From an uncultured Opitutales bacterium (lineage in GTDB: Bacteria; Verrucomicrobiota; Verrucomicrobiia; Opitutales; Intestinicryptomonadaceae), in assembly GCA_934613415.1 (NCBI GenBank), contig CAKTSY010000001.1, forward strand, positions 120,001-152,000: 32,000 nt of DNA, written 5' to 3'. The position numbers were made by a program, and so were the translations under genes. The notes under the pieces were generated by a model. The model saw nothing but the letters and a program-made list of their open reading frames with translations. It searched no databases and was not told the origin of the DNA. Within the stretch, counting starts at the first letter, position 1. Each line of letters starts with the position of its first letter. Shown here piece after piece: positions 3,846 through 25,606 of the stretch.

Positions 3846-5144
3846 ATGAAAATTTTAAGGCTATTTTTTATTTTGCAAATTTTGCCGCTTTTGGCGTTTG
3901 CAAATTTTGTAGATTTCCCCCGAAAAGCAAAAGAATGGTTTTCGACAGAAGCCCCCGTCAAAACAGAGGGGCTAAAAAAGTTTAACATTTGCGACTTTGG
4001 GGCGAAAAGCAAAACAAACACCCCGCAAACCGAGGCAATACAAAGCGCGATAGACGCCGCAGCAAAAAACGGGGGCATTGTTGTAATCCCGCAGGGCGAA
4101 TTTTTAAGCGGAGCGTTGTTTTTTAAGCCTAACACGCATTTATATTTAGCCGAAAACGCCGTATTAAAGGGCAGCGACGACATTTCCGACTTTCCCGTTT
4201 TGCCCACCAGAATAGAAGGCCAAAGCATAGACTATTTTGCCGCCCTTGTAAACGCAAACAACTGCAACAATTTTTCGATTTCGGGCAAAGGCACAATAGA
4301 CGGCAACGGAACAAGATATTGGAAATCTTTTTGGCTGAGGCGCAAAGTAAATCGCAAATGCACAAACATAGAGGAGCTGCGCCCGAGGCTGCTGTATGTT
4401 TCGAACAGCAGCAATGTGTCGGTTAGCGGCATTACCCTGCAAAACTCGCCCTTTTGGACATCGCACTACTACAAATGCAAATTCGTAAAAATTTCGGGGC
4501 TGAAAATACTGTCGCCTACAAAACCGGTTCCTGCTCCCAGCACCGACGCCATAGACATAGACGCCTGCGAAAACGTGCATATAAAAAACTGCTATATGTC
4601 GGTTAACGACGACGCCATTGCCCTAAAAGGCGGCAAAGGCCCGTACGCCGACAAAGCCATCGAAAACGGCGCAAACAAAAATATTTTGATAGAAAACTGC
4701 ACTTTCGGCTTTTGCCACAGCACCCTAACTTGCGGAAGCGAAGCGATTTTATGCGAAAACATTGTAATGCAAAACTGCACGTTCGACAATCCCGACAGGG
4801 TTTTGTGGCTAAAAATGCGCCCCGATACCCCGCAATTATACAAAAATATTTCGCTTAAAAACCTTAAGGGAACCGCGCGCCACTTTTTGTATGTAAAGCC
4901 GTGGACACAGTTTTTCGACCTAAAGGGACGCCCCGACATTCCCCTTTCGTTTGCCGAAAACGTAAGTTTTGAAAATATAAAAGTTGAATGTAAAACGCTT
5001 TTTGCCGTACAAAAAAGCGACCAATATTTCCTTAAAAACTTTTCGTTTAAAAACGTAAAGGCAAAGGCCGCAACATATACAACCGACAAAAGCCTTGCCG
5101 AAAGTTTTAAATTCGAAAATTTCGATTTCGAAAAAACAAAATAG
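3846..5144 (+). CDS. glycoside hydrolase family 28 (polygalacturonase / rhamnogalacturonase-type pectinase), secreted
   Basis: Signal peptide MKILRLFFILQILPLLAFA. GH28 signatures are STDAIDIDACENVHIKNCYMSVNDDAIALKGG (the NTDGID ... GDDCIAiKsG pattern) and parallel beta-helix repeats (ISGKGTIDGNG, SVSGITLQNSP). Confidence 0.85.
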   Translation: MKILRLFFILQILPLLAFANFVDFPRKAKEWFSTEAPVKTEGLKKFNICDFGAKSKTNTPQTEAIQSAIDAAAKNGGIVVIPQGEFLSGALFFKPNTHLYLAENAVLKGSDDISDFPVLPTRIEGQSIDYFAALVNANNCNNFSISGKGTIDGNGTRYWKSFWLRRKVNRKCTNIEELRPRLLYVSNSSNVSVSGITLQNSPFWTSHYYKCKFVKISGLKILSPTKPVPAPSTDAIDIDACENVHIKNCYMSVNDDAIALKGGKGPYADKAIENGANKNILIENCTFGFCHSTLTCGSEAILCENIVMQNCTFDNPDRVLWLKMRPDTPQLYKNISLKNLKGTARHFLYVKPWTQFFDLKGRPDIPLSFAENVSFENIKVECKTLFAVQKSDQYFLKNFSFKNVKAKAATYTTDKSLAESFKFENFDFEKTK

Positions 5145-5155
5145 CCGCTTTTAAA

Positions 5156-5554
5156 ATGGACAAAAAATTGCCGAATTTAATGCTAAATACGGTAAAGGCG
5201 GGTTTCCCTTCGGTTAGCGAAAGCGAGTGTGAATATCCGCTAGACCTAAACGAGCTTATGGTAAAAAATGCGCCATCTACCTTTTTTGTGCGTGTAGACG
5301 GCGACTCTATGCAGCCCGCAGGCATTTTTGCAAACGATATTTTGGTTGTAGACCGCTCGCTGGACCCCGTCGACAAAAGCATTGTAATTGCCTGCGTAAA
5401 TAACGAATTTACCGTAAAATATTTTAGGAGACAAAACAGCAAAGTGTGGCTGCAGGCGGCAAATAAAAACTATGGCGACATACATTTTAGCGGCCTAATG
5501 GAGCTTAAAATTTTCGGCGTTGTAACGGGCTTGGTTCGCAAATTCAGCAAATGA
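5156..5554 (+). CDS. umuD: UmuD, S24 peptidase subunit of translesion DNA polymerase V
   Basis: VKAGFPSVSE carries an Ala-Gly self-cleavage site aligned with E. coli UmuD QCGFPSP. Catalytic Ser is in VDGDSMQP and catalytic Lys in EFTVKYF. The stop overlaps the umuC start (ATGA at 5551-5554). Confidence 0.9.
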   Translation: MDKKLPNLMLNTVKAGFPSVSESECEYPLDLNELMVKNAPSTFFVRVDGDSMQPAGIFANDILVVDRSLDPVDKSIVIACVNNEFTVKYFRRQNSKVWLQAANKNYGDIHFSGLMELKIFGVVTGLVRKFSK

Positions 5555-6789
5555 TTGCTCTGGTAGACGGCAACAATTTTTTTGTATCGTGCGAAAGGGT
5601 TTTTAACCCGTCGCTAGAGGACAAACCCGTTGCGGTTTTGTCGAACAACGACGGCTGCGTAATTTCGCGCTCGAACGAATTTAAGTCGCTTAAAATTGCA
5701 ATGGGTACGCCCTATTTTAAGATTAAAAACGACATTAAACCCTTGGGACTAATCCTTAAGTCGGGCAACCACGAACTATACGGAGACCTGTCGCGCAGGC
5801 TAATGCAAACGCTGTATAAATTCGCGCCCCTTGTAGAGCAGTATTCTGTAGACGAGGCGTTTATACACCCCTACGAAACCCCAAACTGGCAGGCTTTCGG
5901 CGAAAATATGCGCAAAAACATTTTAAAGTGCGTGGGTATCCCCTGCGGGGTGGGTTTTGCAAAAACAAAAACTTTGGCTAAAATTGCAAATCACATAGGC
6001 AAAAAATCGGCAAGCGGCGTTTTTGTTATGCCCGAAAACAACAGGCAAATTTTGGCCAATACCCCCGTGGGCGAAATTTGGGGTGTTGGCGGCAATTCCG
6101 AAACAAAATTGGCTGCAAAAGGCATACACACCGCCCTTGCCCTCTCGGAATTCGGCGACGAAAAGCTGCATAAAAGCTTCGGCATAAATATGGCGAAAAT
6201 TGCAATGGAATTAAGGGGCATAAAGTGTATAGACGACGAAATGCCCGACGAACCATCGCAAAGCCTTACATATTCTAGATGTTTCGGCAAAGCGGTTGTA
6301 GATTTCGAGCAATTATGCGAAAGCGTTGCAACCTACCTAGCCAAAGCGGCCGAAAAGTTGCGCGCCGAAAAGCAAAGGGCTTCGGCGGTAAACATCTATT
6401 CTGTTTACTACCCAGAATATAAACCGCATTTTTCGGAGGGCGGCTCGCTTTCGGCAACGATAACCTTTAATACCCCAACCGACAACACAATAGAAATGCT
6501 AAAAGCCGTTTCTCCGCGCATAGGCAGCATATTTATAAAAAACCGCCGCTACAAAAAAACGGGCGTAGTTCTTTTCGGGTTGGAATCGGGCGCATTTCAG
6601 GGCGACTTGTTTTCCAAAAACGAAAGCCATAGCAAACTGTTCGAAGCTGTAGACAAACTAAACCGAAAATTCGGCAAAAACAGCGTTGCCCCGTTGGCGG
6701 CGGGCCTGCAAAAACCGTGGCAGACAAGGCGCGATATGGCATCTCCTAACTACACAACAAGTTGGAGCGATATTTTGTCGGTAAAATAG
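5551..6789 (+). CDS. umuC: UmuC, Y-family translesion DNA polymerase V catalytic subunit
   Basis: The N-terminus [57 protein letters not shown] is near-colinear with E. coli UmuC ([45 protein letters not shown]...). SVDEAF supplies the catalytic acidic motif. Confidence 0.9.
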   Translation: [412 protein letters not shown]

Positions 6790-6881: not shown

Positions 6882-6958
6882 GGGGACATAGCTCAGTTGG
6901 TTAGAGCATCTGCATCACACGCAGGGGGTCCTCGGTTCGAGTCCGAGTGTCCCCACCA
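6882..6958 (+). tRNA. tRNA-Val (anticodon CAC), CCA encoded
   Basis: Hand-folded cloverleaf. Acceptor stem GGGGACA/TGTCCCC; D arm GCTC-AGTTGGTTA-GAGC; anticodon stem TCTGC/GCAGG with loop AT-CAC-AC; variable loop GGGTC; T arm CTCGG-TTCGAGT-CCGAG; discriminator A followed by CCA. Confidence 0.9.
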
Positions 6959-14996: not shown

Positions 14997-15114
14997 ATTT
15001 TAACCGAAAAATTTTGGCAAGAAAACAAATTTTGCACCTTGACAACAAACAAAGTTAGAACAAACTAACATTTGCAAAAAAATTAAAAACATCTACTTGA
15101 CCGAGGAAAAATTT

Positions 15115-15693
15115 ATGGCGATAACAAAAAGCATTATGGAAATTTTTAAGAATACCAACAATACCGACGCTTTGCCCGCGCTGCTTGCGCAAAAGCCGCC
15201 CTCTTTTGCGGGTGTGTTGGAGGTTGTGCATTCAATCCCGGGTAGAATAAGGGTAAAGATTCCGTCAACAAAGGGCGTGCCCGTTTTAAGCGACAACATT
15301 GTTAAGGCAATGTCGCCCGTGCGCGGCGTTAAAAAAATTTCGGCAAACGCTTTGTTGGGAACATTTTTAATTGAGTACGACAGCGCGGTTTTGTCGCCAA
15401 CGATAGTTGTTTCGGCGTTGACATATTGCTTTAACTTTGAAGGCGAAATGAGGGCGCGCAAGTCGATTCTTGCCAAAGAGCTTTCTACGGTGGGCTTTGC
15501 GCTAAATCAGGCATTGCTTAGCCGCACAAAGGGCATATTAGACATTAGAGCGGCAATAACCCTTCTTTTGGTATTTCAGCTTGTAAAGTCTATACCCATT
15601 GTAAGGAGAAAACTTGGACTACAGGCATCGCCTACATATTTCCCGATAAACCTTATTTGGTGGCTATTCCAAAGCGTATCGCACAGCAGATGA
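15115..15693 (+). CDS. stand-alone cysteine-less HMA-like (HMA2-type) domain protein 1
   Basis: The track ORF starts at TTG 15097. I prefer ATG 15115, which is preceded by AGGAAAA 8 nt upstream. The domain core is VVHSIPGRIRVKIP...VRGVKKISANALLGTFLIEYD, with no CxxC. The C-terminal half is amphipathic and hydrophobic (AAITLLLVFQLVKSI). The stop overlaps the next start (ATGA 15690-15693). Confidence 0.7.
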   Translation: MAITKSIMEIFKNTNNTDALPALLAQKPPSFAGVLEVVHSIPGRIRVKIPSTKGVPVLSDNIVKAMSPVRGVKKISANALLGTFLIEYDSAVLSPTIVVSALTYCFNFEGEMRARKSILAKELSTVGFALNQALLSRTKGILDIRAAITLLLVFQLVKSIPIVRRKLGLQASPTYFPINLIWWLFQSVSHSR

Positions 15694-16055
15694 ACTCTAT
15701 ACAAAAAACCTTCATAAAACTTTTGGGCAAACCGAAAATTGTACACAGCATTCCGGGCAGGCTAAGGATAAACATTTGGGGGCTAAAAAACAACCCCGAG
15801 TATGTCGCCGAATATGCCGACGCCCTTATTGGCGTGCTAAAGTCTAAAAAGGGGATAAGCGATGTTTCCCTAAACCAATATACGGGCAATGTTTTGGTTG
15901 AATATACCCCCAAAAACATAACCGAAAGCGAAATAACCTGCTGGATAGACACCGCTTGGCAAACCGTTTTAGACTCTTTGAAGACGATAGAAAATCCCGA
16001 CGACGAGCGCAAACTTGTTGCCGATATTTGCGAAAAACTTTCAAAATTAGGCTAA
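15690..16055 (+). CDS. stand-alone cysteine-less HMA-like (HMA2-type) domain protein 2
   Basis: ATG 15690 is translationally coupled to the upstream gene (the track gives TTG 15657). The core IVHSIPGRLRINIW...KKGISDVSLNQYTGNVLVEYTP is a paralogue of the upstream domain. The stop lies 4 nt before the ATPase ATG. Confidence 0.7.
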   Translation: MNSIQKTFIKLLGKPKIVHSIPGRLRINIWGLKNNPEYVAEYADALIGVLKSKKGISDVSLNQYTGNVLVEYTPKNITESEITCWIDTAWQTVLDSLKTIENPDDERKLVADICEKLSKLG

Positions 16056-16059
16056 AAAA

Positions 16060-18288
16060 ATGTCGTTTTTTTCTAAAAACAAAAAGCCCCTTTTAAAGTG
16101 CTCTATTGCACACGAAATTTCGGGGCGCGTAAGGATAACCTGCAACGCGTTTAAATATGTCGGAACCGGCGACGACAAAGAACACTTGGCTGGCCACTTT
16201 AAACTTTTAGAGGGCGTTGTTTCTGCAAGAATAAACCCCTATGCAAAATCGCTTGTTCTTGTATACGACGAATCTAAAAACGATTCGAAACGCCTGTTGG
16301 TTTCGGTAGAGGAAATTGTGGCGGCGCACTCGCTCGGCATTTTGCAAAGAGAGCGCGAAGAGCAAAACAAGCTGCTTGTTCAAGAGCGCGATTTGCACGA
16401 AGAACCACTTTCTACGCTGATAACGCGCAGCGCGGTTTCGGCGGCAATGCTGTTTGGGGTATGGCTTTTAAAGTCGCCGGTGCCTGCAACTTTAAGGGGC
16501 AGGCTTTTCGGGTTCCCCGGCCTTGGCGCAATGTCGCTTGCGCTGCCCTTGTTTAAAAGTGGGCTAAAGGCGTTTAAACGCTCTATGCTACCCAATGCCG
16601 ACACTTTAAGCGCGTTGGCGGTGCTTTCTAGTGTATTATCTGGCAAGGCGGCCTCGGCGTTAACTGTTTTGTTTTTGCACGACTTTGCCGAATCTATGAC
16701 GGTTTACACAATGAACCGCACGCGCAACGCCATAAGAGATATGCTTTCGGTAGAAAACGAAACCGTTTGGCACCCCTACAACAACAAAATAGGCAATCCG
16801 CTTCAAAAAATTTCGGCAAAAGAGCTTAAAAAAGGCGACATAATTGTAGTCCATTCGGGCGAAAAGATTTGCGCCGACGGCGTTGTTCTTTCGGGTCGCG
16901 CCGTTATAAATCAGGCGTCTATTACGGGCGAATTTGAACCCGTTTCGCGCGAGAAAGGCGGCAAAGTTTTTGCTGGAACGCTTGTGGTAGACGGCACAAT
17001 TACCTGCGTTGCCGAATCTGCTGGGGCAGATACTACCGTATCTAAAATAATAAAGATGGTAGAAGACGCAGGCGGCAAAAAGGCCCTTGTGCAAAACTAT
17101 GCCGACAAGTTTTCGTCGGCGCTAGTTCCCCTAAACATATTCCTTTCGGGCTTGGTATATGCCGTAACGCGCGACGTAAACAGGGCGTTGAATATGCTTA
17201 TTATAGACTATTCTTGCGGCATAAAGCTTTCTACGGCGGCAGCCCTTTCGGCGGCAATAAACACCGCGGCGCGCCAGGGCGTGCTTATAAAGGGAAGCGG
17301 CGTAATAGAGGCAATGAGCCACGCCGACACTTTAATTTTAGACAAAACCGGAACTCTTACCGAGGGCAAGCCGCAGGTTGAAAGCGTTGTTCCCCTTTCT
17401 GGCAAATACTCGCAAAACGAGGTTGTTTCGTTTGCGGCTGCAGCCGAAGAAACATCTAAACACCCGATGGCTTCGGCAATTCTTGCAAAGGCCCAACGCG
17501 ACATTATTGCAATTCCCCACCACGGCGATATAGAAACCGTTGTGGGCCGCGGCGTATACACCACCGCAAACGGCGCAATAATACGCGTGGGCAACAAACG
17601 CTTTTTAAACGAATGCGGCATACACACCCACCCTATGCGCGACCAGGCTTCGGCACTTTTTGCAAAGGGCGAAAACGTGGTTTTCGTTTCGAAAGGCAAC
17701 GAAATTGCCGGCTTAATAGGCATAAGAGACCCCTTGCGCGAGAATATGAAAAAGGCGTTAAACCGCCTGCGCACCGTTGGGGTAGACGATATTGTTCTTC
17801 TTACGGGCGACTTAGAGCAACAAGCCGACGTTGTTGCCCGAAGGCTTGGCGTAGACAGCTACGAATACGAGCTTTTGCCCGAAGATAAGGCAAAAGTGGT
17901 TCTCAGAATGCAGTCGCGCGGCAACAAGGTTGTTATGGTTGGCGACGGCATTAACGACGCCCCCGCCCTTGCCTATGCCGATGTGGGCATAGCTTTGGGC
18001 AAAACTCGCACAGATGCGGCAATGGAGGCAGCCGACATTACAATTGCAGGCGACAACGCGCTTATGCTGCCCGGCATATACGGGCTTTCGAAATATACAA
18101 TGGACATTGTGCGCCAAAACCTCTATGCTTCGGTTGGCATAAACACACTCGGTTTGGCGTTGGGTGCATTGGGCACCATACCCGTAATATTCGGGGCTGT
18201 AATGCACAACTCGTCCACAATTTTAGTTGTTGCAAATTCTCTGCGAATACTCTTTTATGATATGGGAAAAGCACCTACTCTAAAATAA
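16060..18288 (+). CDS. P1B-like (heavy-metal-type) P-type ATPase with N-terminal cysteine-less HMA-like domain and non-canonical S-C-G transmembrane motif
   Basis: 742 aa. Motifs present: A-domain TGEFEP, phosphorylation site LILDKTGTLTEG (D428), N-domain SKHPMASAI (the P1B H-P motif), hinge VGDGINDAPALAYADVGIALG, and C-terminal TM AVMHNSSTILVVANSLRIL. The N-terminus CSIAHEISGRVRITC...VVSARINPYAKSLVLVYDE repeats the motif of the two upstream proteins. Where P1B pumps carry CPC/SPC/CPH, this protein reads LIIDYSCGIKLST (codons 17212-17220). Confidence 0.88.
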   Translation: MSFFSKNKKPLLKCSIAHEISGRVRITCNAFKYVGTGDDKEHLAGHFKLLEGVVSARINPYAKSLVLVYDESKNDSKRLLVSVEEIVAAHSLGILQREREEQNKLLVQERDLHEEPLSTLITRSAVSAAMLFGVWLLKSPVPATLRGRLFGFPGLGAMSLALPLFKSGLKAFKRSMLPNADTLSALAVLSSVLSGKAASALTVLFLHDFAESMTVYTMNRTRNAIRDMLSVENETVWHPYNNKIGNPLQKISAKELKKGDIIVVHSGEKICADGVVLSGRAVINQASITGEFEPVSREKGGKVFAGTLVVDGTITCVAESAGADTTVSKIIKMVEDAGGKKALVQNYADKFSSALVPLNIFLSGLVYAVTRDVNRALNMLIIDYSCGIKLSTAAALSAAINTAARQGVLIKGSGVIEAMSHADTLILDKTGTLTEGKPQVESVVPLSGKYSQNEVVSFAAAAEETSKHPMASAILAKAQRDIIAIPHHGDIETVVGRGVYTTANGAIIRVGNKRFLNECGIHTHPMRDQASALFAKGENVVFVSKGNEIAGLIGIRDPLRENMKKALNRLRTVGVDDIVLLTGDLEQQADVVARRLGVDSYEYELLPEDKAKVVLRMQSRGNKVVMVGDGINDAPALAYADVGIALGKTRTDAAMEAADITIAGDNALMLPGIYGLSKYTMDIVRQNLYASVGINTLGLALGALGTIPVIFGAVMHNSSTILVVANSLRILFYDMGKAPTLK

Positions 18289-18312
18289 TTTTTTCACGAA
18301 AGGAAATCTATT

Positions 18313-18621
18313 ATGACAAGAGATTACATATTGGGCGCCGCTTTGGGCGTAGGTTTGGCCGCAACGGGCTTCTATCTATACAAGAAGAACCAAAATAAGA
18401 TAGACGATATTTTGCGTTCGCACGGTATGGACATTCCCGTAAACGAAAACAAGGCTCTCGACTCGATGTCGATTGAAGAACTCGCTTCGATGAAGGAAAA
18501 GATTGAAGACCTTATCGCCGAAAGGGAGCTTGCCGCAAAGGAACAGTCTCAGGAAGAAAAGCCCAAGGCTAAGGCGAAAAAGTCGCGCAGTGCCGCCCCA
18601 AAGGCGCAACCTGCAGCGTAA
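18313..18621 (+). CDS. small single-pass membrane protein with acidic coiled-coil and Lys/Ala-rich tail
   Basis: 102 aa, with an AAGGAAA Shine-Dalgarno sequence 7 nt upstream. It has an N-terminal TM helix (ILGAALGVGLAATGFYLY). This is followed by SIEELASMKEKIEDLIAERELAAKEQSQEE and then KPKAKAKKSRSAAPKAQPAA. It is the last gene of the ATPase module. Confidence 0.6.
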   Translation: MTRDYILGAALGVGLAATGFYLYKKNQNKIDDILRSHGMDIPVNENKALDSMSIEELASMKEKIEDLIAERELAAKEQSQEEKPKAKAKKSRSAAPKAQPAA

Positions 18622-18642: not shown

Positions 18643-18682
18643 AAAAAAACGGAGCAAAGCTAAACGCTTGCCCCGTTTTTTT
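18643..18682. terminator. bidirectional rho-independent terminator between convergent ATPase module and GT8 genes
   Basis: AAAAAAACGGAGCAA...TTGCCCCGTTTTTTT. The stem is AACGG(A)GCAA/TTGC(C)CCGTT, flanked by an A-run on one side and a T-run on the other. Confidence 0.6.
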
Positions 18683-23890: not shown

Positions 23891-25606
23891 ATGGAATTAG
23901 TACTTCACGTTATCGGAGGTTTGGCTATTTTCATTCTCGGAATGAAAATGATGAGCGACGGCTTAAATACCGTTGCGGGCGAAAAAATGCGCACAATTTT
24001 AGGGCTGTTTTCGTCGAACAAATATGTGGCAATCCTTACGGGAGCTACGGTTACGGCGGTAATACAGTCGTCGGGAGCTACAACGGTAATGGTTATAGGT
24101 TTTGTAAACGCAGGCCTATTAAGTTTGGTTCAGGCAATAGGAATTATATTCGGAGCAAACATAGGTACAACAATTACAGCCCAGCTTGTAGCCTTCGACA
24201 TTAGCTGGATTATTATGCCCGCAATCACGCTGGGTTTAGTTGTAAGCTTTATACCCAAGCCAGCAATTCGCAACTGGAGCGAAACAATTATAGGCTTGGG
24301 CTTTTTGTTTTTCGGCATGCAAATAATGGCAGACGATCTTAAAACTTTGTCGGACCACCCTGCGTTTATGTCGGTATTTCAAACATTTCAATGTATGCCA
24401 ACCGAAAGTGGATATATTCCGTTTTTTGCGCTTTTGGGAGCTATGGGCGTGGGTCTTTTGGTTACGGTTTTAATGCAAAGTTCTTCGGCTTGTTCGGGCG
24501 TTATTGTGGCTCTTGGCGCAAGCGGTTTGATAGACATTTATACGGCAACGGCATTGATATTCGGCAGCAACATCGGCAGCACGGTAACGGCACAGCTTGC
24601 GGCAATTCCCGCAAACCGCGTTGCAAAACAAGCGGCAATGGCCCATACGCTTTTTAATTTACTTGGCGTTTTGATAATTGTGGCAACCTTCTACATTCCA
24701 ATTTCGGGCGACCCTATTTTCTTTAAAATTGTAAGAATGTCGTGCAAGGCGGGCGATATCCCGCGCGAAATTGCAAACGCGCATACAATTTTCAATGTTT
24801 GCGCAACCATAATTTTAGTCCCCTTTATCCCCCTATTGGCAAGAATTTGCGAAAAGATTGTACCTGTAAGAGAAGAAAAGGTAAAATACCAAAGGCTGGA
24901 ACCGCACTTCTTAAATGCGCCCTCCATAGCCTTGGCGCAAACTGCGGGGGCGTTGCGCAAAATGCTTAAAAAGTCGTGGAAAATGGTAGACTGCACCTTA
25001 AAAATGTACAACCAAAACGACGACCGCAACAAGAATATGGTTGCCCAGCTTGAAGAACGTGAAAACGATGTAGATATTCGCCAAAAAGACATTACCGAAT
25101 ATCTTGCCAAGCTAATGCAAAAGAACCTTACCCAAAACGAAGCCGAGCAAATACCCGTTCTATTGCACTGCACAAACGACGCCGAACGTATTGGCGACTT
25201 GACGTTTGTAATACATTCCGTAATGGAACGAATGCTTAAAAACAAATATTCTTTTAGCCCCGAGGCCGAAAACGAATTCAACCAAATTTGTCAAAAGCTA
25301 AACTCTTTGGCGGAATTTTCGATTTCGCTTTTGGAGAAGAAAACCCCCGACGCCCAAAAGATTTCGGATATGTTTAGAAGCGACATTGTAGACACGCTAA
25401 GCCGTCTGGAAACCGAGCATATGGAGCGCATTAAAAACGGCAAATGCCGTCCCGAAGTGGGTATTTTATATTTGGAAATGCTCGAAGCCATGCGCAAAAT
25501 TTCTAAGAACCTATTTAACATAGTAGAACGTGCCTCGAACTTTTACGACAAAATCCCCAAAGTAGATTCCGCAAAGGTTAAATCCTTTGCAAAACCCATG
25601 GCATAA
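23891..25606 (+). CDS. Na+/phosphate cotransporter family protein (NptA/YjbB-like) with C-terminal PhoU-like domain
   Basis: GGLAIFILGMKMMSDGL...TGATVTAVIQSSGATTVMVIGFVNAGLLSL.QAIGIIFGANIGTTITAQL, and the repeat LMQSSSACSGVIVAL...ALIFGSNIGSTVTAQL, are the duplicated Na_Pi_cotrans signatures. The C-terminal 200 aa are helical and PhoU-like (NDAERIGD). Confidence 0.85.
   Translation: MELVLHVIGGLAIFILGMKMMSDGLNTVAGEKMRTILGLFSSNKYVAILTGATVTAVIQSSGATTVMVIGFVNAGLLSLVQAIGIIFGANIGTTITAQLVAFDISWIIMPAITLGLVVSFIPKPAIRNWSETIIGLGFLFFGMQIMADDLKTLSDHPAFMSVFQTFQCMPTESGYIPFFALLGAMGVGLLVTVLMQSSSACSGVIVALGASGLIDIYTATALIFGSNIGSTVTAQLAAIPANRVAKQAAMAHTLFNLLGVLIIVATFYIPISGDPIFFKIVRMSCKAGDIPREIANAHTIFNVCATIILVPFIPLLARICEKIVPVREEKVKYQRLEPHFLNAPSIALAQTAGALRKMLKKSWKMVDCTLKMYNQNDDRNKNMVAQLEERENDVDIRQKDITEYLAKLMQKNLTQNEAEQIPVLLHCTNDAERIGDLTFVIHSVMERMLKNKYSFSPEAENEFNQICQKLNSLAEFSISLLEKKTPDAQKISDMFRSDIVDTLSRLETEHMERIKNGKCRPEVGILYLEMLEAMRKISKNLFNIVERASNFYDKIPKVDSAKVKSFAKPMA

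Follow-up and report, generated by a model that had tools for sequence, protein, structure and literature searches.

Our analysis points to a four-gene module from an uncultured gut bacterium as a close relative of the fez gene clusters, the genetic determinants of ferrosomes, which are organelles that store iron within a membrane. The module lies on the forward strand of a 32,000-nucleotide stretch of DNA (the window; positions 120,001 to 152,000 of contig CAKTSY010000001.1, assembly GCA_934613415.1) from an uncultured bacterium that lives in the human gut and belongs to the Opitutales (Verrucomicrobiota). It encodes a membrane-bound and a soluble protein that share one domain (genes 1 and 2), a P1B-type ATPase that carries the same domain at its N-terminus (gene 3) and a small single-pass membrane protein (gene 4; Table 1). 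We regard it as about an even bet (probability roughly 0.5) that these genes form a fez-like, ferrosome-type metal-sequestration cluster of a sister lineage, responsive to Fe(II) or Mn(II). The kind of system is already known, as are its constituents, the HMA_2 domain and the arginine-rich (R-rich) and GxxxG motifs. The specific branch was not found described in the literature searched (Grant et al. in its preprint form). By this branch we mean a pump with D[Y/F]xCG in its fourth transmembrane helix (TM4; xCG below), a gene 1 protein without a haem site, two cysteines at the pump N-terminus, a four- or five-gene architecture, a link to DtxR-family regulators and a shared operator.

Our definitions of FezB and of fez clusters are those of the preprint by Grant et al. 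and its supplementary tables (bioRxiv 10.1101/2020.01.10.902569). In that account a fez cluster encodes FezB, a P1B-6 ATPase with D[Y/F]SCA in TM4, HNxxT in TM6 and an R-rich N-terminus, together with at least one hydrophobic GxxxG protein and at least one soluble or membrane protein with an N-terminal R-rich motif. The role of FezB is to fill vesicles inside the cell with iron; FezA, FezE and FezG are the GxxxG proteins and FezC and FezD the R-rich ones (Grant et al.). Ferrosome formation in D. magneticus, S. putrefaciens and R. palustris depends on these operons, and that of S. putrefaciens is sufficient in E. coli (bioRxiv 10.1101/2020.01.10.902569). In C. difficile the FezB-dependent ferrosomes contain Fe(II) phosphate in a vivianite-like form and are constitutive in a fur mutant (PMC13307979, PMC13463818).

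An arginine-rich HMA_2 domain on the pump and its partners

A domain of ~60 aa with the motif H-x3-G-R-x-R occurs three times in the module, exactly where the original prediction, made from the letters of the window, had placed it. The copies are homologous (pairwise BLASTP E=4e-10, 3e-5 and 4e-3), and they belong to Pfam HMA_2 (PF19991, gathering threshold 30 bits). Gene 1 matches the full 154-position profile (E=6e-30, 104.6 bits), gene 2 its N-terminal half (E=1e-9, 38.9 bits), and the ATPase N-terminus falls just under threshold (E=2.6e-6, 27.9 bits) in an alignment that rests on the invariant H, G, R and R. These four are the only invariant columns when the three copies are aligned with the ATPase homologues, and the histidine and two arginines are nearly invariant across all three paralogues and ~270 homologous domains. 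Among 81 relatives of the ATPase, C14 is kept in 74, H18 in 78, G22 in 79, R23 in 78, R25 in 78 and C28 in 72. The motif is under strong purifying selection, with no decay. It is the same motif that was published as the R-rich motif of fez clusters (Grant et al.; Pi et al.), and both systems carry it N-terminally on the pump and on small partners. The earlier expectation that such domains are catalogued as HMA2-like is borne out by the Pfam entry and by the RefSeq name for these proteins, "HMA2 domain-containing protein".

AlphaFold2 (AF2) models of gene 2 (mean confidence score, pLDDT, 85) and of the gene 1 domain (residues 31-110, pLDDT 83-92) both adopt a beta-beta-alpha-beta-beta-alpha arrangement. 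The motif lies on the first hairpin: strand 1 carries the histidine, Pro-Gly makes the turn and strand 2 carries Arg-x-Arg. When the gene 2 model was compared with the PDB by Foldseek, the top matches were mainly heavy-metal-associated (HMA) domains: metal-binding domain (MBD) 3 of RAN1, the MBDs of ATP7B, MerP, HMA7, CopZ and CCS. Their probability was ~1.0, the target TM-score 0.6-0.7 and the root-mean-square deviation ~1.9 Å over 65 columns, at an E-value of only ~1e-2; no PDB match reached E<=1e-3. The HMA-like fold that had been proposed thus stands, and the proposed beta-alpha-beta-beta-alpha-beta order gives way to one that begins with a hairpin.

The likeness to classical HMA (PF00403) pairs such as CopZ/CopA lies in a small ferredoxin-like domain used both in cis on a pump and in trans, and in the structural matches just described. 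The sequence similarity is marginal: the PF00403 profile gives E=0.089 and the CopZ profile of NCBIfam E=0.063, both far below cut-offs, and PDB sequences match at E~1. The GMxCxxC loop of classical HMA metallochaperones is found in none of the three copies, in agreement with the earlier report that CxxC is missing. The domains are nevertheless not "cysteine-less", as they had been called: gene 1 has one cysteine, gene 2 has two and the ATPase domain has C14 and C28. Nor has the domain in cis lost its thiolates, given how widely both cysteines are kept among the ATPase relatives. Equivalents of C14 and C28 are missing from both stand-alone proteins. By the geometry of the hairpin the two cysteines probably face opposite sides, which makes a simple Cys2His site doubtful.

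Arginine is a poor metal ligand, and one histidine with two arginines is more typical of an anion, lipid or protein interface. By strand alternation these three residues should share one face of the hairpin, and for both reasons an interface with protein, anion or lipid is suggested. The docking or regulatory role that the original prediction offered, or one in assembly, is more plausible than thiolate metal transfer; the loss of cis thiolates on which it was founded did not hold up. The module could also be read as a chaperone-pump system in which the His/Arg domains bind another ligand, either an anion (phosphate, for example) or a metal at a non-thiolate site, and pass this on to the pump. 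The near-invariance of the three residues and their predicted common face speak for such a site, and an anion-binding surface is conceivable because the ferrosome mineral is an iron phosphate (PMC13307979). Ligand binding is conjectural, however, the residues fit an interface better than a metal site, and the N-terminal metal-binding domain of CopA-type pumps is regulatory and not essential (PMC13460109). We judge this alternative clearly unlikely as a separate explanation; it is compatible with a fez-like cluster and would sit inside that reading rather than apart from it.

The ATPase and its clade

The ATPase has all its catalytic motifs intact (DKTGT, TGE, GDGxNDxP and HP), carries the Pfam E1-E2_ATPase and Hydrolase domains and matches TIGR01525 of NCBIfam at E=1e-156 (522 bits, cut-off 346 bits). 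Its nearest solved structures are CopA, CoaT and ZntA, each at ~270 bits and none closer. The original prediction had framed the module as a degenerate CopZ/CopA system. That framing does not survive: DYSCG in TM4, HNSST in TM6 and the N-x20-HN spacing place the pump in a P1B-6-like superclade, not among the Cu/Zn pumps, and its transmembrane metal site is of another class than that of CopA.

An ordinary Cu/Zn/Cd resistance pump with decayed HMA domains, accompanied by unrelated hypothetical genes, is highly improbable. Matches to the generic heavy-metal ATPase family and to Cd/Zn/Cu subfamilies of NCBIfam, and one homologue annotated "copper-exporting P-type ATPase A", are what can be said for it. 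It is contradicted by Cd/Zn/Cu equivalog scores that are all far below cut-offs, by transmembrane motifs that are not CPC, CPH or SPC, by the selection on the R-rich motif and by the synteny of the small genes across phyla described below.

Set against FezB, the pump agrees in two of three signatures. HNxxT in TM6 is present as HNSST, and the N-x20-HN spacing is common to both pumps, occurring in 31 of 31 xCG, 31 of 31 SCA-type (FezB) and 16 of 16 CtpC-like sequences. The N-terminal feature (R-rich RxR; no CxxC or His-rich domain) is present as HEISGRVRI and is, according to Grant et al., not specific to FezB (bioRxiv 10.1101/2020.01.10.902569). The module pump adds two conserved cysteines there that FezB does not share. 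In TM4 it has DYSCG instead of D[Y/F]SCA, and DYSCA occurs in only 2 of its 120 closest homologues. The definition of FezB (Grant et al.; Smith et al.) includes six transmembrane helices; for the module pump a crude hydropathy scan finds four hydrophobic segments before the actuator (A) domain, which would suggest eight.

The profile search for the ATPase was a full HMMER scan of 1.8 billion cluster representatives. D[YF]xCG sequences fill its top ranks (E 1e-201 to 1e-121); below them, CtpC-like, FezH and FezB-type sequences are intermixed at 29-40% identity (FezB type ~33-37%). In a neighbor-joining (NJ) tree of 145 sequences, which is not a maximum-likelihood tree, the window ATPase falls in a pure xCG clade of 32 sequences with bootstrap 0.92, outside the FezB clade. 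The xCG clade is sister to the SCA (FezB) and GTG groups within a superclade of 73 sequences, and the CtpC-like and FezH sequences lie outside this superclade. FezH is the second R-rich P1B ATPase of large fez clusters, with xCPC[AS]T and HIxHT motifs (Grant et al. tables). It resembles the module pump in its R-rich N-terminal domain and in belonging to fez-type clusters, but differs in TM4, in TM6 and in its position in the tree.

This division agrees with the published tables. In Supplementary Table 1 of Grant et al., ATPases with D[Y/F]SCG, HNxxT and H..PGR.R..C are colored apart from FezB (#FCE7F1); they come from Clostridium kluyveri, C. sporogenes, C. acetireducens, Fusobacterium, Leptotrichia, Intestinibacter, Bacillus, Selenomonadales and Succinivibrio. 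CLAOCE_12990 of C. acetireducens, in this non-FezB group, is the same protein as our homologue P0104 and is 50% identical to the window ATPase. All 12 xCG-clade genomes checked are absent from the FezB-genome list and the cluster tables of Grant et al. Within that sample of 12 the xCG and SCA types looked mutually exclusive, which fits xCG clusters standing in for fez.

Two further groups of ATPases appeared among the homologues. Seven R-rich P1B-like proteins (P0192, P0221, P0223, P0224, P0235, P0251 and P0261) have D[YF]GTGIR in TM4 and SNGSA in TM6, with no Cys, His or Asn at the metal-site positions. They group with the FezB side of the tree and, to judge from these motifs, may be non-transporting or have a different substrate. 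Five proteins of 1549-1706 aa (P0143, P0163, P0171, P0185 and P0189) contain three to four separate stretches that match the ATPase and may be tandem-fused P1B-type ATPases.

The small proteins

Genes 1 and 2 supply the R-rich partners of a fez cluster, one membrane-anchored and one soluble in both systems. They resemble the ~190-aa and ~110-aa R-rich groups in the supplementary tables of Grant et al. An SCA-type fez cluster on an Azospirillum brasilense replicon served as reference: gene 1 matches its R-rich protein at E=1e-6 and gene 2 its soluble R-rich protein at E=3e-7 (BLASTP). In the AF2 model of gene 1 the C-terminal helices that follow residues 31-110 have low confidence. Across 72 relatives the gene 1 family keeps H..PGR.R, G..D and a WW pair in the last helix. 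Haem binding has been shown for FezC, a haem-b protein (PMC11334425), and a FezC-type protein is not described as universal in fez clusters (Grant et al., bioRxiv 10.1101/2020.01.10.902569). We considered gene 1 as a FezC-like cytochrome and rejected this, since no transmembrane histidine is conserved; a Pfam scan of gene 1 gave no match to DUF4405.

Gene 4 has the GxxxG hydrophobic region of fez clusters (DYILGAALGVGLAATG), near the N-terminus of a protein of ~100 aa as in fez. Its layout is a transmembrane helix, a conserved acidic helix and a Lys/Ala-rich tail, and its family, present in 74 of 85 related loci, conserves D[YF]..G...G.G...G[FY]Y.YKK, that is, a glycine zipper G-x3-G-x-G-x3-G followed by YKK, and S.EEL..KE..EDLIAE.E. 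By motif it (DYILGAALGVGLAA..) agrees with the GxxxG proteins that Grant et al. place in Group 2-1, such as Dde_0493 (DYLKGLALGAGVAL) and Sputcn32_3194 (QFLLGALLGATAAY), with lengths of 110-124 aa. A gene 4 profile matches the Azospirillum GxxxG protein weakly (E=1e-3); BLASTP of gene 4 against the same protein found nothing, and a Pfam scan of gene 4 returned no family.

Conserved gene order across phyla

The locus survey covered one genome per GTDB species and matched 412 loci with the N-terminal 420 aa of the ATPase as query. Because word-indexed searches with the small proteins gave only 2 and 5 matches, we rebuilt their families by jackhmmer on six-frame open reading frames (ORFs) from the best 80 of the 412 loci together with Fusobacterium vincentii and Priestia megaterium pBM400, 85 loci in total. 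In most of the best 80 the same order recurs: an HMA_2 protein with a hydrophobic tail (~190 aa), an HMA_2 protein of ~125 aa, the DYSCG ATPase, in some loci an HMA_2 protein of ~280 aa, and a GxxxG protein of ~90 aa. Conservation of the gene order, which the original prediction had left to a neighborhood analysis, is therefore strong, includes the small genes and extends over Verrucomicrobiota, Lentisphaerota, Kiritimatiellota, Planctomycetota, Desulfobacterota, Bacillota, Bacteroidota, Fusobacteriota and Gemmatimonadota. Like fez, it is a compact operon found in anaerobes. The xCG clusters occur widely among anaerobes of gut and sediment (among them Opitutales, Victivallales, Kiritimatiellae, Fusobacterium, Clostridium, Planctomycetes and Desulfobacterota), and their annotation is generic; the Priestia copies, for example, are named "HMA2 domain-containing protein" and "cation-translocating P-type ATPase" in RefSeq. 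It had also been considered that the ATPase might fall in a characterized subgroup with known accessory proteins. This is so for the accessory families, which are those of fez; the ATPase itself belongs to the uncharacterized D[Y/F]xCG sister clade.

The four-gene form seen in the window is that of Opitutales, Victivallales and Kiritimatiellae. Clusters of five genes are seen in Clostridia, Planctomycetota, Desulfobacterota, Bacteroidales and others. The ~280-aa protein, an addition of relatives outside the Planctomycetes-Verrucomicrobia-Chlamydiae (PVC) group, is a difference from fez. It was found in loci L049 (3532-4359) and L087 (8204-9046) and in 36 other loci, and has the conserved segments AV.H..E....G.[YF]DPEV.S..YL and TW..FGRHL; Pfam recognizes only the HMA_2 N-terminus of this family and no further domain.

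Two Kiritimatiellaeota metagenome-assembled genomes (MAGs; L035 and L036) encode an xCG ATPase with full 6-kb flanks in which neither HMA_2 nor GxxxG partner genes could be detected; the pump is solitary, or its partners have diverged too far to be recognized. A second P1B ATPase adjoins the cluster in four loci (L019 3462-4661, L074 6109-7308, L079 9990-11189 and L080 2210-3409), and the one of the four that was inspected has a classical CxxC HMA domain (LKGLTCPNCSAKVEKD).

Operator-like palindrome and neighboring regulators

Eight nucleotides after the -35-like hexamer upstream of gene 1 lies an inverted repeat, AGTTAG-AACAAA-CTAACa. Its match in the window taken alone is not significant. 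The palindrome AAGTTAG-N6-CTAACTT, however, stands upstream of the cluster in five further Opitutales species in which the surrounding sequence has diverged, and a TTGAnA hexamer precedes it in Opitutales relatives as well. With up to two mismatches allowed, it is found in 10 of 80 upstream windows, against an expectation of 0.011 per window, and its carriers include members of other phyla. The half-sites resemble those of the DtxR/IdeR box (GTTAG/CTAAC), and at a Gemmatimonadaceae MAG locus (L067) a perfect palindrome directly follows a DtxR-family gene. The site is not a DtxR/IdeR box proper, a candidate that we rejected: the upstream regions match at best 12-14 positions of the 19-bp consensus, and the site is a different palindrome with N6 spacing. 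No Fur box was evident by eye upstream of the module in the window, where no Fur-box scan was run.

We surveyed the nearest flanking gene on each side of ~75 loci (141 genes) with Pfam. The DtxR-type iron-dependent repressor is the commonest neighbor family, its two domains occurring in 14 and 13 of the 141 genes and at 14 of the ~75 loci, from Victivallales, Planctomycetota, Desulfobacterota and Gemmatimonadota. FeoA occurs in five of the flanking genes and the FeoB Gate domain in three. Regulators of the iron type may be a further point of agreement, Fur and DtxR being found with fez and the DtxR family near relatives of the module. Because the palindrome overlaps the promoter region, a metal-loaded DtxR-type repressor bound there would give expression under Fe or Mn limitation, by analogy with the Fur control of fez in C. 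difficile.

We considered a riboswitch or leader RNA and set it aside: a search of the window and nine related loci at the Rfam gathering threshold returned tRNAs only, and permissive scans of the window leader and a Victivallales leader gave chance-level matches only. Upstream of the first HMA_2 gene in Victivallales/Lentisphaeria (L020 ~4700-4880, L022 ~4150-4330, L024 ~1460-1660 and L025 ~4770-4970) there is a conserved, GC-rich leader of ~170 nt with several hairpins, preceded by an AT-rich promoter-like stretch. With no Rfam match, it is a candidate new cis-regulatory RNA that could possibly sense metal.

Sequestration or efflux

How would such a cluster work? We envision a scenario in which ATP hydrolysis by the pump drives a divalent transition metal, most likely Fe(II) and possibly Mn(II), from the cytosol through a predicted transmembrane site made of the Cys of DYSCG and three residues of HNSST (His, Asn and Thr). 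If the analogy with FezB holds, the metal would be delivered to a membrane-bounded storage compartment and not to the outside. The products of genes 1 and 2, the former anchored in the membrane and the latter soluble, share the CxxC-less domain of the pump N-terminus and could serve as docking, assembly or regulatory modules that contact the pump or the membrane, rather than as thiolate metal chaperones. Gene 4, a single-pass protein with a glycine zipper, may oligomerize in the membrane and shape or scaffold it. Expression would probably be repressed by a metal-loaded DtxR-family regulator at AGTTAG-N6-CTAACT and switched on under metal limitation, as for fez in C. difficile.

The main rival is an efflux platform of the CtpC/PacL type, in which the pump would expel surplus Zn, Mn or Fe through the cytoplasmic membrane, gene 4 would be a PacL-like scaffold needed for both the stability and the clustering of the pump, and the HMA_2 proteins would modulate its activity. 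The model is the CtpC-PacL1 "effluxosome" of Mycobacterium tuberculosis, where a P1B-6-like Zn/Mn exporter with a DUF1490 scaffold exports metal for detoxification (PMC13460109). CtpC has the same G-R-x-R at its N-terminus, HN-x-x-S/T and no CxxC, as the module pump does, and it depends on a small single-TM protein with acidic (Glu/Ala) repeats and a disordered tail (PMC13460109), an architecture that gene 4 matches. By raw distance the CtpC-like sequences are as near to the ATPase as FezB is (1.23 against 1.35), and a second P1B pump, of the classical CxxC-HMA kind in the one inspected, adjoins the cluster in the four related loci mentioned above. In TM4, however, CtpC has CPC where the module pump has SCG, and the NJ tree groups the xCG clade with FezB and not with CtpC. 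PacL proteins belong to DUF1490 and may have a His-rich tail. Gene 4 does not match DUF1490 at E<=0.1 and lacks a His-rich metal-binding tail, and we rejected it as a PacL, the likeness being one of general architecture. PacL systems are not described with stand-alone HMA_2 partners, whereas fez clusters are. Finally, DtxR-type neighbors and a palindrome that overlaps the promoter would be typical of repression in metal-replete cells, the opposite of what efflux needs. Because TM4, the tree, the HMA_2 partners and the type of regulator fit fez better, we favor a fez-type cluster over a CtpC/PacL-type platform, which we consider unlikely although it is the strongest of the competing explanations.

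Several points weigh against the fez-like reading itself. The xCG sequences are a distinct clade with G for A in TM4, and substrate or destination could therefore differ from those of FezB. The superclade that joins them to FezB has a bootstrap of only 0.64, from NJ, and the raw distances just given do not favor FezB over CtpC. Across its 72 relatives the gene 1 family lacks conserved histidines in the hydrophobic C-terminal part, unlike haem-binding FezC. The proposed link of gene 4 to the fez GxxxG proteins draws on motif, architecture and one weak profile match. The palindrome has a spacing of N6 where the DtxR/IdeR box has N1, and its regulator is putative. The 32-kb window holds no iron-homeostasis gene (Feo, Fur or DtxR), no metal-homeostasis gene and no regulator. 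No experiment on any member of the xCG clade was found in the literature searched. For this clade the original statement that no experimental characterization of such domains is known agrees with that result; it fails for the motif family as a whole, whose fez operons have been deleted, complemented and transplanted into E. coli.

A bolder form of the fez-like reading is that D[Y/F]xCG clusters specify a second class of ferrosome-like organelle, or a ferrosome tuned to another metal such as Mn(II). We put this forward tentatively, as possible and rather less than an even chance. Under it, control would lie with a dedicated DtxR-family regulon acting through AGTTAG-N6-CTAACT operators, and the His/Arg/Arg face would be an assembly or targeting code by which partners are brought to the pump or the membrane of the organelle. 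With four genes and without a cytochrome-like or ~280-aa part, the PVC version would amount to a minimal kit for such an organelle.

Few lipid-bounded organelles of bacteria have a defined genetic blueprint; ferrosomes do, and they affect the virulence of C. difficile. The shaping of the membrane, the function of the R-rich domain and the existence of similar compartments for other metals have been named as open questions (PMC13463818). If the sister clusters build compartments, the reach of such organelles would be far wider and would include abundant human-gut Verrucomicrobiota and Lentisphaerota and oral and gut Fusobacteria. SCA and SCG pumps would offer a natural comparison for metal selectivity, with the four-gene version as a minimal test bed. 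If they are efflux platforms instead, the FezB and CtpC/PacL paradigms would be linked. For the window itself, the immediate value is that the labels "hypothetical protein" and "HMA2 domain protein" can give way to a correct annotation. Iron particles of another kind, the Fe-S particles of Clostridium RJ-1 described in C. bifermentans (bioRxiv 2024.05.15.594430), were considered and set aside, as they have no genetic link to such clusters.

Gene layout and genomic setting

The features of the module are collected in Table 1. The four co-directional ORFs are where they had been reported, and the junctions read from the sequence are likewise as described: an ATGA overlap at 15690-15693, a 4-nt gap (AAAA) at 16056-16059 and a 24-nt gap at 18289-18312. 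For gene 1 the ATG at 15115, with GAGGA 7 nt upstream, is a more likely start than the first in-frame TTG; public assemblies with an identical ATPase call gene 1 from this ATG (192 aa) and gene 2 from the ATG at 15690 (121 aa). The terminator hairpin has a folding energy of -18.1 kcal/mol (z=-4.8, 0 of 200 shuffles as good) and is flanked by an A-run and a U-run. A scan for consensus sigma-70 promoters and terminators called no promoter upstream of gene 1 and overlooked the terminator because of its bulge.

Table 1. Features of the module, with positions in the window.
Feature	Position	Strand	Description
TTGACA, -35-like hexamer	15039..15044	+	upstream of gene 1; putative promoter element
Operator-like inverted repeat	15053..15070	.	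AGTTAG-AACAAA-CTAACa, 8 nt after TTGACA
Gene 1	15115..15693	+	192-aa HMA_2 protein, hydrophobic C-terminal helices; first in-frame start TTG 15097
R-rich motif copy 1, HSIPGRIRV	15229..15255	+	gene 1; on beta-hairpin of AF2 model
Gene 2	15690..16055	+	121-aa soluble HMA_2 protein; FezD-like by size and motif
R-rich motif copy 2, HSIPGRLRI	15744..15770	+	gene 2
Gene 3	16060..18288	+	742-aa P1B-type ATPase, D[Y/F]xCG clade
ATPase N-terminal signature, PLLKC14-x3-H18-x3-G-R-x-R-x2-C28	16087..16146	+	residues 10-29; motif copy 3 between two conserved Cys
R-rich motif copy 3, HEISGRVRI	16111..16137	+	ATPase N-terminus, residues 18-26
TM4 metal-site motif, DYSCGIK	17206..17226	+	residues 383-389
Phosphorylation motif, DKTGT	17341..17355	+	TGEF at 16924-16935, GDGINDAP at 17941-17964
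TM6 motif, HNSST	18205..18219	+	residues 716-720; preceded by N-x20
Gene 4	18313..18621	+	102-aa single-pass protein; N-terminal glycine-zipper TM GAALGVGLAATG at 18334-18369
Bidirectional intrinsic terminator	18643..18682	.	between gene 4 and convergent GT8 glycosyltransferase gene

A species-representative MAG contig is 98% identical over the ATPase, and contigs from Hadza gut metagenomes encode an identical ATPase protein. As had been remarked, Shine-Dalgarno (SD)-like motifs are rare in the window, occurring in 3 of its 26 genes, two of which are genes 1 and 4. The G+C content of the window peaks in the ATPase region, at 17001-18000 (0.517 against ~0.44). This and the SD usage hint weakly at a foreign origin or at constraints on composition.

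Most genes around the module encode glycoside hydrolases, a TRAP transporter, EutBC and a Na/Pi cotransporter. The last of these (23891-25606), which includes a PhoU domain, is found on the same strand, five genes downstream of the module; ferrosomes hold their mineral as iron phosphate, yet nothing connects this gene to the module. Upstream of the module are EutBC, the TRAP transporter and a PduO-type adenosyltransferase, in a window without microcompartment shell genes. Farther upstream, at 5156-6789, a UmuD-like (Peptidase_S24) and a UmuC-like (IMS) gene form a pair that is followed by a tRNA gene at 6882-6955.

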